Shown here: positions 1,992-62,325 of the stretch, piece after piece | Numbering within the stretch: the stretch's first letter is position 1 | Layout: every line of letters begins with the position of its first letter | IMG/VR virus record: IMGVR_UViG_3300020057_001228 | Span: 64,001-128,000 of that record | Length of the DNA: 64,000 bases | DNA from: a virus | Lineage: Duplodnaviria; Heunggongvirae; Uroviricota; Caudoviricetes | Direction: 5' to 3' (one strand) | The notes under the pieces: generated by a model | Told to the model about the DNA's origin: nothing | Seen by the model: only the letters and a program-made list of their open reading frames with translations | Database searches by the model: none | Program-made: the position numbers and the translations under genes

Positions 1992-3836
1992 ATGGCTCTA
2001 GAAAATAACCTATATCCTGATATCCAGTTTGAGGAGATCAACGACAGTCCTCGGCCTACCCAAGTTGGATCTACCAACCGTATTGGCCTAGTTGGAGTGT
2101 TTCGTAAGGGTCCAAACGGGACGTTCAGGTTGCGCAGCACGTTTGAAGAGTTTGCCAAGATGTATAGCGACACCACACATGCTGGTTCCGTTGCTGTACA
2201 AGAGGCCATGGACCAGGGTGCCGATGACTTCGGTATCATCCGTGTCATGGGTTCTGCCAAGGCAGCCTCTGGTAACATCATCTTCTCTACAGCTGTAGTA
2301 ACAGCCGGTAGTGTTGAGTTCACCTTCCAGAGATTCCAGGTAGACGGCGTCACCCAGATTGGTGCTGACGTTGTTGTAGCCATTGGCGTAACTGGTGGTA
2401 TGTCTGCTGCAGCTATTGCCAACGCAGCTGTAACCGCTATCAACGCTGACTCTGGTGTGAACACGTTCATCACTGCTGTCTACGACACTGGTGGTACTGT
2501 AACCATCCAGGCCGATACCAAGGCTGCTATCACCAACTACTACAAAGTTAAGTTGGAGATCCCTGGCGTTGGTGGTGCTGGTGGCGTAACCGTATCCCCA
2601 CTCGTAGCTACTTTTTTAACTGGCGGTGCCGATGGACCAGCGCGTTCCACAGCAATCGTTCAGGACCGTCAGGTTGTACCAGTTGACCTATTCAGGATTG
2701 ACGCAGCATTCGATGGTACCTGGGGCGACTTCGTTCAGTTCACTATCACGAATGGTTCTGTATCTGGTAAGTTCAACCTTATCGTTACTGACACGTTCAA
2801 TAGCCACCAGGAGTCTTACTTCGATCTAGACATCAGCAACCCACTAAACCTGGACGCTGACACCAATGAAGTTCTAGCCACTCGTGGCTCTAACCTCGCT
2901 CGTGTGTTCTACATTGGAGCTGGTACCTTCTCTGCTGAGCTTCCTGCTATTAGCACGGATGTTCCGCTAGTTGGTGGATCTGATGGTCCAGCGATCGAGC
3001 TAGATGACTATATTGATGCACTAACCACTCTGAAGATGAATGTCGCCAACATCATCCTATCCGCTGGTAGTGTAGACAACACGATTCGCGCTGCTCTAAT
3101 CGCACAGGCTGAAACGTCGGAGGCTATCTCAGGGTTCCGTCTAGCCGTTCTAAACGCTGGCAAGAACATGCCTATCGAGACTCTGGATACAGTGAGCTCT
3201 CCATTCAACACTACGACTGGCTCTGCCGTCATGGTTGCTGGTTGGGCTACTTACGCTGGTCAGCCACGTCTATCTAGGTTCGGTGGTTCTCCAGATGGTC
3301 TGTACGCAGGACACTTGGTAGCTACACCAATCCAGGTATCGCCTGCAGCTCGTAGCAGCTCTCCGTTCATCCAGAACATCGTAGAAGTTGATACCGTCAT
3401 GACAGGGCAGGCCTTCAACAACTACACCAAGGCTCGTATGGAAGCTCTTGTTCTTGATATTGCAACCGGTGGATTCCACTGCCTAAACGGCCGTACACTG
3501 TCTTCTGATGGTGCATGGTACTGGGTATCTGTCCGCAGGGTGTATAATCAGATCAAGTCCGACCTGTTCCGTGCAATCCAGTGGGTCAAGTCTCAGCCGA
3601 ACACTACGGCTATGCGTAACCAGCTCAAGCAGCAGCTAGATACCTACATGGGTCTACTGCTAGCCAGAGGGGTTATTGCTGCTACCAAGCCTTCGCTTGT
3701 TGACAGTACCAACAACCCACCTGATCGTGTGGCAAGCGGCTATCTCCGTGCAGAAGTTTACTTCGTGCCTGTATTCCCTGCAGACCACGTGATAATCGGA
3801 GTACGTAGGTTCCTAGCGGCTGATGTACTAGCGTAA
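1992..3836 (+). CDS. contractile tail sheath protein
   Basis: N-terminal 'YPDIQFEEINDSPRP...IGLVGVFRKGP' and C-terminal 'WYWVSVRRVYNQIK...LLARGVI...NNPPDRVASGYLRAEVYFVPVFPADHVII' are typical sheath motifs. AGGAGAGG SD upstream. Confidence 0.92.
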   Translation: MALENNLYPDIQFEEINDSPRPTQVGSTNRIGLVGVFRKGPNGTFRLRSTFEEFAKMYSDTTHAGSVAVQEAMDQGADDFGIIRVMGSAKAASGNIIFSTAVVTAGSVEFTFQRFQVDGVTQIGADVVVAIGVTGGMSAAAIANAAVTAINADSGVNTFITAVYDTGGTVTIQADTKAAITNYYKVKLEIPGVGGAGGVTVSPLVATFLTGGADGPARSTAIVQDRQVVPVDLFRIDAAFDGTWGDFVQFTITNGSVSGKFNLIVTDTFNSHQESYFDLDISNPLNLDADTNEVLATRGSNLARVFYIGAGTFSAELPAISTDVPLVGGSDGPAIELDDYIDALTTLKMNVANIILSAGSVDNTIRAALIAQAETSEAISGFRLAVLNAGKNMPIETLDTVSSPFNTTTGSAVMVAGWATYAGQPRLSRFGGSPDGLYAGHLVATPIQVSPAARSSSPFIQNIVEVDTVMTGQAFNNYTKARMEALVLDIATGGFHCLNGRTLSSDGAWYWVSVRRVYNQIKSDLFRAIQWVKSQPNTTAMRNQLKQQLDTYMGLLLARGVIAATKPSLVDSTNNPPDRVASGYLRAEVYFVPVFPADHVIIGVRRFLAADVLA

Positions 3837-3845
3837 GGGTAATTA

Positions 3846-4130
3846 ATGTTAGCGGTATCTGATTTCTGTTATAGGTGCGGGGACTGCATTACAGCGTGCC
3901 CCGTACCTGGGACTATCACAAACATTCTCCCTGGCAAGGTCAGGATCAACTCCTTTTCATGTATTGATTGTAACCAGTGCATACCTGTATGCCGCTTTGG
4001 CCTCATTACAAAAGAGAAGGAAGCTGTGACTGAAGTGGAGTCTATTGATATTCTCGCTATGGCAGCACCAGATACCGTTGACGTACCTGCTGAAAAGAAG
4101 CCAGTACTTAAGAGGAAGCGAGCTAAGTAA
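3846..4130 (+). CDS. 2x[4Fe-4S] dicluster ferredoxin-like protein
   Basis: Two CxxCxxCxxxC motifs (CYRCGDCITACP; CIDCNQCIPVCR) at canonical spacing. Stop overlaps the next start (TAATG). Basic tail KKPVLKRKRAK. Confidence 0.88.
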   Translation: MLAVSDFCYRCGDCITACPVPGTITNILPGKVRINSFSCIDCNQCIPVCRFGLITKEKEAVTEVESIDILAMAAPDTVDVPAEKKPVLKRKRAK

Positions 4131-5338
4131 TGGCTGACCAGGAACTACCGCCAATCCCACCCTTTGTTAATGACAGGGTGTACATTGACCTTCTTCCTAA
4201 AGAAGAGCAGAACCAGGTTGCTATCCTTAATGCTCGTCACGGTGGGCCTCTTGCTGACCCAAGCAAGCTTTTTAGCGAGGCGTTTCCATCATTGGGTGGT
4301 CTGCCTGCTGCCACATTGCCTACACCTGGTACCTCTTCTGAGGTAGCTCCCACATCTACTGAACGTCCTCTGCTTGATAGGATTATCAACCCGCCTGCTG
4401 AGCCACCTAGACCTGGTAGCATTCGCAACGTAACAGACCACGCTGGTCCAGATCCCTTCCAGGGCTTTGACGTTGACGTATGGATCCAGCGTATAGATCT
4501 CGTAGACAAGATGAAGGATTCCCTGCTTAAGAGTCCTCTAGCAGATAGTCATCATCATGGTGGTATGGTTCTGCTAGGTCAGTTCCAATCTGTCAGTATT
4601 GGTATCAAAACCACAGCTGAGGCATATCTAGAGTTTGATTCCCGCACTCCAATTTATATGGACGGAGAAGTACAAATAGTCTTCAGACTTGATAAGGGTC
4701 TGGTGGATATGGGTGTTCTTCAAGAAACATTTGGAGTAAACGTACTTGGTCGTAGGACCAGCTACAACGTTCTTCCAAGGTTCAACATTACTTTCAACAT
4801 CAATACGACTAGCTACAACTACATTGATGATAAGTGGGAGTCTGAGCTCAATGGGGTCGTCTCGTACGGTCAGAGGCCCTACAGTGACCTACCACCAGAG
4901 AATCAGTCACTCAGTAGAGCAGGTGGTTTGCTAGATGTTCTTACGAATGCAACAGGGTTATCACCAACTAGAGCTCTTGCTCCGATCAATGGTGAACCAC
5001 TACCAACATTCCAAAGACATGTGAACGGACGCTTTGTGCTCAAAAGCTGTAAGGTAAACTCGTTCAATATTGATGCAGGTGCTGGTAAGCAGGTTGTTGC
5101 CACACAGTGGTTAGGAGTAGCCGAGGAGATTGTATCTCTAGCAGGCGATCCACCTAACGTTGTGCATTCCAACAAAGGCGAACGGGGAGACTCAAACGCC
5201 GCGTTGGATACGTGGCCTGTAGGACAGGCTAATACACGGCTACCTTTGGAGAGCATCAAACGGGAAGAACGTGCAGGTGCGGCCAAGGATTTAGCCGGTA
5301 AAGCGTTTAGCGCAGGTCTAAGGGCATTGTTAGGATAA
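4130..5338 (+). CDS. tail tube paralogue with N-terminal extension and internal insertion (tube/tube-initiator-like)
   Basis: Shares blocks with the 5350 ORF: TDHAGPDPxQGFDVDxW, EAYL..YxDGEVQI, PRFxITFNxNT, GKQVVATQWxGVxE. Lies downstream of the sheath. Confidence 0.65.
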   Translation: MADQELPPIPPFVNDRVYIDLLPKEEQNQVAILNARHGGPLADPSKLFSEAFPSLGGLPAATLPTPGTSSEVAPTSTERPLLDRIINPPAEPPRPGSIRNVTDHAGPDPFQGFDVDVWIQRIDLVDKMKDSLLKSPLADSHHHGGMVLLGQFQSVSIGIKTTAEAYLEFDSRTPIYMDGEVQIVFRLDKGLVDMGVLQETFGVNVLGRRTSYNVLPRFNITFNINTTSYNYIDDKWESELNGVVSYGQRPYSDLPPENQSLSRAGGLLDVLTNATGLSPTRALAPINGEPLPTFQRHVNGRFVLKSCKVNSFNIDAGAGKQVVATQWLGVAEEIVSLAGDPPNVVHSNKGERGDSNAALDTWPVGQANTRLPLESIKREERAGAAKDLAGKAFSAGLRALLG

Positions 5339-5349
5339 GGAGTTCAATC

Positions 5350-5955
5350 GTGGCTGGTACTATCAAATCGATTACAGATCACGCAGGCCCGGATCCCATT
5401 CAGGGATTTGACGTAGACTGCTGGGTAAGCGACGCATCTGACGGTACAATGATCCTGTTTGGTTCATTCACGTCTATCGTTGTAACTATTAGAAACGCTA
5501 CTGAGGCGTATCTAGGACTGAACGAGCGTATCCCCCGTTACCTTGATGGTGAGGTACAGATCGCTTGGGTTATGGAAAAGGGAATGCTCGACGTCAACGT
5601 ACTCAAGCAGAGCTTCGGCTTCTCTGAGATGACTCGTATGATTCGTTTCAACCGTAGTCCTAGGTTCCAGATTACCTTCAACACAAACACATACGGTGAG
5701 CTGAACAAGAAGGTAACCCTTCTATCAGCACTACAGCCTATTACTGATCCAATGCGTGACCCAGATGGTCGTATCGAACTCGTGCGTGCTAAGCTAGACT
5801 CATTCCACTTTGCTGCTACTTCTGGTAAACAGGTTGTAGCTACCCAGTGGCAGGGTGTTTGCGAAGGTATTCGTGTATACGCTGATCACGTTGTTGGTCA
5901 GTACGAGAATGTACCTGGTGCAAGTACTGCACTACCTGGTATTACTGATACATAA
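5350..5955 (+). CDS. tail tube protein
   Basis: 201 aa, compact paralogue of the previous ORF, positioned between sheath and baseplate hub. Confidence 0.65.
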   Translation: MAGTIKSITDHAGPDPIQGFDVDCWVSDASDGTMILFGSFTSIVVTIRNATEAYLGLNERIPRYLDGEVQIAWVMEKGMLDVNVLKQSFGFSEMTRMIRFNRSPRFQITFNTNTYGELNKKVTLLSALQPITDPMRDPDGRIELVRAKLDSFHFAATSGKQVVATQWQGVCEGIRVYADHVVGQYENVPGASTALPGITDT

Positions 5956-27747: not shown

Positions 27748-28500
27748 ATGTACACACCATTCCCTCTCAACCTTGGTTTACGCAAAGACGTTCTTGATGA
27801 ACGTGACTTCTTGTACAAAGACGACAGGAAGATGAGAGGGTATTTGCCTCCTAGGTTTACAGTACGAGATAAGATGTCTCGTGTGTATAACCAGGGGGCT
27901 CTTGGTTCGTGTACAGCTTTCTCAACAGCTAAGGGAGCTCGTGAAGCTCTAGACCTCAGGGATGATAACCAGTTCACTCCACTGTCAGCTCTGTATCTCT
28001 ATTACCATACAAGAGCTGCCGAAGGTAACATCCAATCTGATTGTGGTGCTACTCTACGTAACGCTGTAAAGATCCTAAGTACCCGTGGGTGTGCTACGCA
28101 TGATGACTGGTTATACGACCAGAATGCGTTCCATACTCTACCAAACCAGAATGCAGAGTCTAGTGCTCCTAGGTTCAAGATCGTAGAGTATCACCGCCTT
28201 ACTACTCTAGAAGAGATGCTGCGCTGCCTTGCAGATGGCTACCCATTCGTTGGTGGTGTGTCAGCCTACTCTCACTGGTATAGTAAGGAAGTAGTTGCTG
28301 GTGGTAAGATCTGCTACCCACGTGATGGGGACTCTGATCTAGGCGGACATGCTATCTGCTTTACGGGTTATGACGTTGGTGAGAGCATACTTCAGTTCAA
28401 GAACTCTTGGGGTGAGGACTGGGGTGATAAGGGTTATGGCTATCTCCCACTGAACTATGTTGAGAAGTACGGGTGGGACTTCTGGACTATGACTAAGTAA
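27748..28500 (+). CDS. papain-family (C1A) cysteine protease
   Basis: Oxyanion Gln and catalytic Cys in 'NQGALGSCTAFS', His in 'GGHAICFTGYD', Asn in 'FKNSWGEDWGDKGYGY'. Confidence 0.93.
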   Translation: MYTPFPLNLGLRKDVLDERDFLYKDDRKMRGYLPPRFTVRDKMSRVYNQGALGSCTAFSTAKGAREALDLRDDNQFTPLSALYLYYHTRAAEGNIQSDCGATLRNAVKILSTRGCATHDDWLYDQNAFHTLPNQNAESSAPRFKIVEYHRLTTLEEMLRCLADGYPFVGGVSAYSHWYSKEVVAGGKICYPRDGDSDLGGHAICFTGYDVGESILQFKNSWGEDWGDKGYGYLPLNYVEKYGWDFWTMTK

Positions 28501-58606: not shown

Positions 58607-58901
58607 CAGGTAGTGGTCCTCCTCTTGCGAGCTTGTCTAGTCTAGCTCTCGCGTTATCTTTTGCTAAGCACAGAAGCTCACCGACTGACGAGATTGGCAT
58701 ATGGATATGCCCGAAGGTGGGAGCCCCGTTAACAGGGTCTATTAGTTCAGCGTGGAAGAGCGTCTCGCCAACCTCGGTGATTCGAATGATGTACGACTGG
58801 TTGAGGCGTAGTATCTCTTTCGACACTTTGTATAGATCGAGAAGATACTTTAGCTCTTTGTGACTAGCTTCCACTATAAGCATATCGGCCCCCATACCCA
58901 T
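58554..58901 (-). CDS. hypothetical protein
   Basis: TAATG-coupled to spoVS. Confidence 0.6.
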   Translation of the reverse strand: MGMGADMLIVEASHKELKYLLDLYKVSKEILRLNQSYIIRITEVGETLFHAELIDPVNGAPTFGHIHMPISSVGELLCLAKDNARARLDKLARGGPLPDGYSIRPNEEPGSQSGM

Positions 58902-59179
58902 TACCTAGGCTCTACAATGTACTGCAGAGCCGTCTTAGTCTCACCAGAGATAAGCACCTCTACAAATCCAGGTATCATAATAACATCCACATGAGTGCTG
59001 GCTAGCTGCCCTCTAGAAATAGCGATTGCTTTATTAGCCTGGTTCACAGCATCGGATCCAATAGCTCGAACGTATGACCGTCCAAACTCCTTGATCTGAT
59101 TAGTGATCGCACCGGCTACACTATTTGGGTTGCTTTTCGCACCGACCGTTAAGATCGTTTCAGCACTCGTTGCGGGCAT
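58901..59179 (-). CDS. spoVS: SpoVS-family protein (stage V sporulation protein S, Alba-like fold)
   Basis: 'ILTVGAKSNPNSVAGAI...RAIGSDAVNQANKAIAISRG...IPGFVEVLISGETKTALQYIVEPR' aligns end to end with Bacillus SpoVS as I recall it ('ILKVSAKSSPNSVAGAL...QAIGAGALNQAVKAVAIARG...IPAF..I.I.GEERTAIKLIVEPR'). Confidence 0.93.
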   Translation of the reverse strand: MPATSAETILTVGAKSNPNSVAGAITNQIKEFGRSYVRAIGSDAVNQANKAIAISRGQLASTHVDVIMIPGFVEVLISGETKTALQYIVEPR

Positions 59180-61597: not shown

Positions 61598-61751
61598 TGT
61601 TCTGCGACTCCTCACAACGAATCTGTTCTAAGTTCATTATAGCCTCATAGAGGCTACGATCCAACAGTTTTCGCCTGGGAAAGTACTTCCTTATGACATG
61701 TTTTTGCCATTCAGGAAGACGGGATATACGGACTAGATTAGGACGTTCCAT
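61563..61751 (-). CDS. small hypothetical protein
   Basis: GGAAGAG SD-like sequence; fills the gap between neighbours. Confidence 0.5.
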   Translation of the reverse strand: MERPNLVRISRLPEWQKHVIRKYFPRRKLLDRSLYEAIMNLEQIRCEESQNNGSRTSQSPEP

Positions 61752-62325
61752 ACGTCTCTTCCAAGAGCTGTTTCAGCTTATCTAAATCCTTGAGGAACAT
61801 CCAGGGTACTGAACCTGTTTTGAATTGTCTATCCCCATCTAAGTCGAACGAACTGAATTGCTCGATGGTGGCTGGATTCCAAGTAACTAAATACTTGTAG
61901 CCCTTTAGGGGGTCGGTGAATACTTTGCCATGGATCTTACCAATACCACTCTCCACGTGGGGGAGTAGAGAAGTCTTAGCACGTTCGCCACAGATCATGA
62001 TGATCTTACACTGAACCAGCTTGAACTCTTGGTTGATCCACTTACGACAGGCATTCAACTCTTTCTCGGTAACGTCAAGCTTCTTAGGTGGGCACTTGAT
62101 AACGTTAGTAATGAATACATCACGTTCCATATCCAGTCCTACATAGGACGCCAATGCCGATCTGAGAAGCTTACCGCTAGGGCCCATCATAGGCCTTCTT
62201 AGTTTGGTCTCCTGGTTACCAGGGTAGTCGGAGACAATGATCAGCTTAGGGTTAGTAGGGCCTTCACCTGGGACAGTAATACCCTCGCCAAGCTTGCAGG
62301 CCTTACAGGCTATATCAATTAGCAT
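61738..62325 (-). CDS. family-4 uracil-DNA glycosylase-like protein with altered active-site motifs
   Basis: 'CKAC...VPGEGP...LIIVSDYPGNQE...PMMGPSGKLL...FITNVIKCPP...C'. Motif B reads WNPA instead of HP(S/A). Confidence 0.85.
   Translation of the reverse strand: MLIDIACKACKLGEGITVPGEGPTNPKLIIVSDYPGNQETKLRRPMMGPSGKLLRSALASYVGLDMERDVFITNVIKCPPKKLDVTEKELNACRKWINQEFKLVQCKIIMICGERAKTSLLPHVESGIGKIHGKVFTDPLKGYKYLVTWNPATIEQFSSFDLDGDRQFKTGSVPWMFLKDLDKLKQLLEETYGTS

Follow-up and report, generated by a model that had tools for sequence, protein, structure and literature searches.

What is the role of a ferredoxin gene that is flanked by the genes for the tail sheath and the tail tube of a contractile-tailed phage? 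The question is raised by a stretch of 64,000 nucleotides, hereafter the window, that spans bases 64001–128000 of a virus record of 166,577 bp. The record belongs to a myovirus that is distant kin of Ma-LMM01, and near-identical sequence is present in microbial-mat metagenomes. A sequence-only reading of the window had drawn attention to the arrangement and proposed that late, coupled expression of the gene could denote a virion-associated redox sensor or trigger, a tail-assembly factor or a late metabolic helper. Phage ferredoxins are usually scored as auxiliary metabolic genes, whereas the lineage described here behaves like a tail gene, judged by its fixed position, its co-inheritance with the sheath, the lack of any partner enzyme in our searches and the non-acidic surface of its product. 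Below we detail the evidence for this view and weigh it against the alternatives.

The genes in question are all encoded on the plus strand. The contractile tail sheath (1992–3836; 614 aa) matches PHROG 30392 (E 4e-51) and PHROG 23; it is 29% identical to gp091 of Ma-LMM01, and sheath identities to Microcystis phage Ma-LMM01 and Microcoleus phage My-WqHQDG range from 29 to 34%. Its TAA stop codon ends at 3836 and is followed after a gap of 9 nt by the gene for a 2x[4Fe-4S]-type dicluster ferredoxin (3846–4130; 94 aa), the last base of whose stop codon is at the same time the first base of the next ATG (TAATG). Both the 9-bp gap and the one-base overlap had been described from the sequence and are borne out. 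An assembly artefact is excluded, as contigs from other runs span the sheath–ferredoxin junction (X2 and X4) and the ferredoxin–tube junction (X3) at no less than 99% identity, these contigs sharing year and habitat and possibly stemming from one campaign. The two genes that follow are a long tail-tube paralogue (4130–5338; 402 aa) and a short one (5350–5955; 201 aa) that is the probable main tube; both belong to PHROG 34837 and are 36% identical to each other. Sequence searches with the tube genes returned no match to a curated family or solved structure, and the two are best read as tube proteins from ESM Atlas features and from synteny in small prophages. The Atlas clusters of the short paralogue (features 0.96) hold Phi812_tail_tube (28% of members) and DUF2001 (19%). 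The same protein is homologous to the product of a single 144-aa gene located between the sheath and tape measure genes of small prophages, and the synteny supporting this identity includes chaperone-sized and tape-measure genes. Ma-LMM01 (gp091–gp092) and My-WqHQDG have sheath and tube genes of homologous families, likewise in this order, but, unlike the window, nothing between them and only one tube gene. The tandem tube paralogues (4130–5955) are kept in the window's clade and some of its neighbours; cyanophage relatives and small prophages mostly have a single tube gene. A scan for sigma-70 promoters and terminators detected nothing above chance near the ferredoxin gene.

The 94-aa ORF contains eight cysteines arranged in the two complete CxxCxxCxxxC motifs that had been claimed for it. 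Motif 1 reads C8-x2-C11-x2-C14-x3-C18-P, and motif 2 reads C39-x2-C42-x2-C45-x3-C49 followed by Arg, not Pro; the expectation of finding such a double motif by chance in the genome is about 1e-10. The protein passes the curated Pfam cut-offs of Fer4, Fer4_7, Fer4_9 and Fer4_10; it lacks the plant-type [2Fe-2S] motif, and only Fer4 families match. It falls short of the 65-bit cut-off of the NCBIfam family FdxA_fam (NF058577), the window copy scoring 30 bits and two copies from small phages 45 and 44 bits. An AlphaFold model built on a 49-row alignment (a 5-sequence input had given a pLDDT of 45) comprises a core of about residues 1–57 with a pLDDT of about 95, followed by a low-confidence tail. 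The model superimposes on the Clostridium acidurici ferredoxin 1FCA with an rmsd of 1.2 A over 56 columns and a TM score of 0.87 by target, and the modelled fold indicates that the protein probably carries two [4Fe-4S] clusters. Fold searches identified no viral structure resembling the ferredoxin model and no match to a tail-tip protein of the gpL type; the protein is a stand-alone dicluster fold.

The likeness to the clostridial 2[4Fe-4S] ferredoxins (1FCA/1FDN) thus extends to both cysteine motifs and to the same 55-residue fold. Unlike these, the phage proteins have a neutral or basic core and a charged tail of 15–55 residues, in the subgroup of the window protein the last Cys is followed by Arg in place of Pro, and the lineage is phage-specific and fixed in a tail operon. 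The net charge of the core averages +2.2 in large phages and +0.2 in small ones, compared with -5.0 in 17 stand-alone cellular ferredoxins (p about 1e-4), so that the acidic surface expected of soluble shuttles is not found. The folded core is followed by an acidic linker and then a basic tip, and the basic C-terminal end KKPVLKRKRAK is indeed present in the translation. A small gene that follows the capsid gene in the same operon has a product of similar build, in which a small domain is followed by an acidic linker and a tip rich in Lys. Basic tails are therefore common to small late proteins of the clade and provide no special evidence of a trigger; in the small prophages the C-terminal tails are only inconsistently basic.

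How widely is this arrangement conserved? We retrieved survey loci with sheath and tube queries, and the survey is therefore not biased towards the ferredoxin. In all, the analysis recovered 28 distinct homologues, every one of which reads in the sheath–ferredoxin–tube slot. They fall into two groups: large phages, in which the ferredoxin is present in 10 of the 11 members of the window's clade, and 18 Mu-like temperate myovirus prophages of 35–42 kb in Bacillota. The sheaths of the two groups are only about 31% identical. In prokaryote genomes with a match to the tube profile the ferredoxin was directly upstream in all cases (11/11), and named hosts include Pelotomaculum propionicicum, Desulfocucumis palustris, Clostridium lundense and the aerobe Paenibacillus naphthalenovorans. 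One homologue (L281, reverse strand 1185–1526) has a variant motif 1, CxxCxxCx5CP, with a two-residue insertion and still occupies the slot; in one prophage (L170:2587-3986) the sheath is called as two genes of 149 and 317 aa. Our searches turned up no carrier of the gene among cultured phages. The literature that we searched, with most subscription journals outside reach, gave no account of a sheath–ferredoxin–tube arrangement; the protein class has long been known, and its placement between sheath and tube is new relative to the papers searched.

The gene is not universal among phages with the same tail. It is missing from L089, which is nested in the window's clade as the sister of L002 and whose sheath is 72% identical in its C-terminal part, and from the L185/L186/L234 branch (Negativicutes; L234 is a Pelosinus locus). 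About 40 further relatives, including all cyanophage-like ones, have sheath and tube genes without a ferredoxin, and in the cyanophage relatives the junction holds other inserts, with gaps of 450–4400 nt. Since all of these do without it, the ferredoxin is not an essential structural part. The sequence-only reading had counted dispensability for tail assembly against its own proposal. On this point the evidence is divided: the gene can be lost in lineages with the same tail, while its position is kept across relatives. The Pelosinus locus (L234:2172-8441) is a sheath–tube–tail cluster without a ferredoxin that is accompanied by host genes, with no head genes in the 2.5 kb upstream, and possibly represents a tailocin or a prophage remnant.

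The homologues bear the marks of selection on the protein. All eight cysteines are invariant across 26 aligned phage homologues, and the dN/dS of the core is about 0.08–0.13 where dS could be estimated, near the value of the sheath and about 0.1 in both groups; the C-terminal tail evolves about three times faster than the core. Ferredoxin and sheath distances are correlated in the large phages (Mantel rho 0.83, p 0.0004) and in the small ones (0.44, p 0.004). A recent insertion, which absence from this position in close relatives was to have revealed, is ruled out by synteny, by the co-divergence with the sheath and by a GC3 of 0.46, similar to that of the neighbouring genes; with the slot occupied in 28 phages from two remote groups, the association with the tail is in fact far stronger than could be told from the one sequence, even though some lineages with the same tail dispense with the gene. 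In a tree with 44 cellular ferredoxin domains, which rests on 54 columns and leaves the deep forks unresolved, each phage group forms its own clade. When a prophage copy served as the query in five host genomes, other prophage copies outscored the chromosomal ferredoxins by a wide margin, and close kinship to host ferredoxins was not observed, the hosts compared perhaps not including that of the window phage. Selection, co-divergence and separation from the host sequences together argue that the gene travelled with the tail and was not repeatedly acquired from hosts. On the sheath tree, its presence and absence require 4 changes, as opposed to about 14 when the labels are shuffled. Neither the ferredoxin (p-AU 0.36) nor the sheath (p-AU 0.55) rejects a tree that keeps the two groups together, and the sequences are compatible with a single gain and then two losses in that clade or with two gains at the same slot. 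The gene is thus real and under selection; in two distant groups of phages it has a fixed place between sheath and tube, and it can be lost.

Within the coding sequence lies a further conserved element, an RNA hairpin on the plus strand (3872–3909) over motif 1 that consists of an 11-pair outer and a 3-pair inner stem and has no U-run. Its stability exceeds that of synonymous recodings in 8 of the 10 homologues from large phages (z -2 to -5); the mean z in large phages is -3.0 for the hairpin at motif 1 and -0.8 for motif 2. Four host ferredoxins tested against synonymous recodings gave no hairpin signal. In the small prophages, where the main tube follows directly, the signal is weak (mean z -0.9). 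Compensatory evidence consists of a single pair from related sequences, in which synonymous Arg (AGG/CGG) and Pro (CCT/CCG) codons form A-U in 4 and C-G in 5 sequences. The 54-kb late region contains only four strong sense-strand hairpins, and these include the one in the ferredoxin gene and one that follows the major capsid gene upstream of the window (genome 62078–62102); in related phages a hairpin is likewise found 3' of the capsid gene. Many relatives that lack the ferredoxin have an intergenic hairpin after the sheath. At the same junction L089 has a hairpin with a U-run (L089:6915-6945) that resembles the arms of the ferredoxin hairpin and is its best non-ferredoxin match among about 560 hairpins, by a margin of 1–2 score points; the resemblance is suggestive of a relic of the ferredoxin hairpin.

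The simplest inference from these sequences is a stem-loop that stabilises or terminates the transcript of a gene expressed in high copy, here placed inside ferredoxin codons. In the cellulosome operon of Clostridium cellulolyticum, 3' stem-loops after highly expressed genes set subunit ratios (PMC4423207). The phage arrangement resembles this selective RNA processing and stabilisation in placing a stem-loop after a highly expressed operon gene and differs in that the phage stem-loop, putative in its action, lies within the codons of the gene that follows. If the hairpin marks the end of a stabilised sheath message, the ferredoxin is predicted to be expressed below the level of the sheath, together with the long tube paralogue, and in the large phages this is probably the case. 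Of the late, coupled expression that had been proposed, coupling is suggested by the TAATG overlap with the tube gene; a high level of expression is doubtful because the conserved hairpin, 26 nt into the gene, probably ends the stabilised sheath message. The element would represent an example of a putative regulatory hairpin encoded in cysteine-motif codons.

Could the protein itself act on this hairpin? An Fe–S or redox-sensing protein, or its translation, might tune read-through past the post-sheath hairpin. In keeping with such a regulator, the selected hairpin lies inside the ferredoxin's own coding sequence, the large-phage proteins combine a basic core with a Lys/Arg tip, and in L089 a U-run hairpin is found in place of the lost gene. 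We regard it as improbable: in the small prophages the hairpin signal is weak and the tails are inconsistently basic, and a plain hairpin follows the sheath in many relatives without the ferredoxin, which implies that the RNA element works without the protein. Moreover, we know of no stand-alone dicluster ferredoxin that binds RNA. Conversely, the gene could be a passenger without protein function, retained solely because of its RNA hairpin or the translational coupling. The hairpin does constrain the codons over motif 1, and the junction in cyanophage relatives tolerates other inserts, but the protein keeps its full set of eight cysteines in both motifs, of which motif 2 lies outside the hairpin, and the low dN/dS holds in both groups; selection on the protein largely refutes this reading, to which we give hardly any credence. 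A sensor of oxygen or redox state, borne by the virion and gating the assembly or contraction of the tail, would account for the position between sheath and tube and for the coupling to the tube gene, and the oxygen sensitivity of [4Fe-4S] clusters, as reported for lambda gpL (PMC10721106), would provide the means. Against it, the gene is carried by prophages of the aerobic P. naphthalenovorans as well as by those of strict anaerobes, it is absent from the locus of the anaerobe Pelosinus, and relatives manage without it. Tail contraction, furthermore, normally begins at the baseplate. A link to anaerobic hosts is ruled out by the Paenibacillus carriers and the Pelosinus absence, and with an occurrence unrelated to the oxygen lifestyle of the host the proposed oxygen- or redox-gated trigger is left without support; we consider such a sensor very improbable. 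Only slightly less remote is the broader proposition that the protein is packaged on the contractile tail with its two clusters controlling sheath assembly or contraction readiness, either as a redox switch or as an oxygen sink; if true, it would be the first component of a contractile phage tail to respond to redox state.

A late metabolic helper is a more serious, if still unlikely, alternative. The protein would act as a soluble low-potential electron carrier or Fe–S store supporting host redox metabolism during particle production, and its gene would have its site in the tail operon only for the sake of late, strong expression. The canonical clostridial fold with all ligands present fits such a role, the named hosts are mostly ferredoxin-rich anaerobic Bacillota, and optional presence is usual for auxiliary genes. 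Profile searches of the window phage genome and the prophage records identified no radical SAM enzyme (PF04055), NrdD (PF13597), bilin reductase (PF05996) or Pyr_redox_2 (PF07992) protein, and the window phage genome has no NrdB (PF00268); the virus records are 56–89% complete and the list of partner families is not exhaustive. The sole ribonucleotide reductase of the genome looks like class II, given the absence of a small subunit and a zinc-ribbon-like motif at its end. Enzymes of this class use thiol carriers, not ferredoxin. In the small Mu-like prophages the ferredoxin is as constant as the core tail genes and there is no redox enzyme in common; a DUF5131 gene occurs in one of them only. 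Host enzymes may nevertheless be the partners, as with the cyanophage P-SSM2 ferredoxin, a [2Fe-2S] protein near host ferredoxins that serves PebS and the host sulfite reductase (bioRxiv 10.1101/2020.02.07.937771); as this ferredoxin feeds host enzymes, a phage-encoded partner is unnecessary. The window protein shares with P-SSM2 Fd that it is a small phage-encoded iron–sulfur protein of the ferredoxin class, but unlike it is of the 2x[4Fe-4S] type and distinct from host copies, in a genome without a bilin reductase. What speaks against the metabolic role is the single fixed position across groups whose sheaths are so divergent, the absence of any trace of re-sampling from hosts, the neutral to basic surface, and retention in temperate phages of only 35–42 kb that share no other metabolic gene.

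The explanation that we tentatively prefer, at not quite an even chance, is that this phage-specific, vertically inherited 2x[4Fe-4S] protein is an optional Fe–S accessory factor of tail morphogenesis. Host machinery would load the two [4Fe-4S] clusters, as the fold suggests. The protein would be made late from the tail operon, in large phages at a level below that of the sheath with the hairpin capping the sheath message, and the gene anatomy suggests that its translation would be coupled to that of the following tube gene. More speculatively, it might act on tail assembly or ride in the particle at a few copies, its clusters might serve as a structural core or local reductant as in the tail-tip proteins of the lambda gpL type, and it might raise yield or stability while being non-essential. 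Position, the lack of partners in the families searched and surface charge suggest action on the tail, and lambda gpL and the R4C hub offer precedents for Fe–S in tails. In lambda and in roseophage R4C the tail-tip proteins contain Fe–S clusters, and for lambda gpL, RcGTA gp13 and the R4C hub the role of the cluster is open (PMC10721106, PMC10276861). The window protein resembles these three as an Fe–S protein tied to a phage tail, here by gene position. In the gpL type a single cluster is bound by one domain of a siphophage tail-tip protein that is essential, unlike the free-standing, losable two-cluster ferredoxin fold encoded beside a contractile-tail sheath. In favour of the accessory factor, the acidic linker and basic tip copy the layout of the small post-capsid gene. 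Weighing against it, the modelled fold is the ordinary electron-transfer fold, unlike the gpL cluster site, and the fixed position could reflect just the need for a late promoter.

Should the protein act on the tail, it would extend to contractile tails the question posed by lambda gpL, namely why tails carry Fe–S clusters, and because the ferredoxin is small and losable it offers this question in a testable form. The prophages in cultured P. naphthalenovorans, C. lundense, P. propionicicum and D. palustris provide a route to induction and virion proteomics. For virome surveys the lineage is a caution that such genes should not be scored as metabolic.

Several other genes in these genomes deserve mention. 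A gene of the uracil-DNA glycosylase family (Pfam UDG; window 61738–62325, minus strand) has a CxxC and further Cys like the Fe–S-binding family 4 and thus probably encodes a second Fe–S protein of the phage. A SpoVS homologue (58901–59179, minus strand; Pfam E 2e-26) is a possible clue to the host phylum, and a papain-family cysteine protease (Pfam Peptidase_C1; 27748–28500) precedes putative lysis genes. Outside the window, a minus-strand cluster (G000:C1:159774-164329) looks by eye like a ubiquitin-like conjugation set with Ubl-like and ThiF/E1-like genes and neighbours. Two of the prophages (G207:C1:2081-5436 and G208:C1:2698-5750) have reverse-transcriptase-like, small accessory and fibre-like genes, in a layout that, read by eye, may represent a diversity-generating retroelement.
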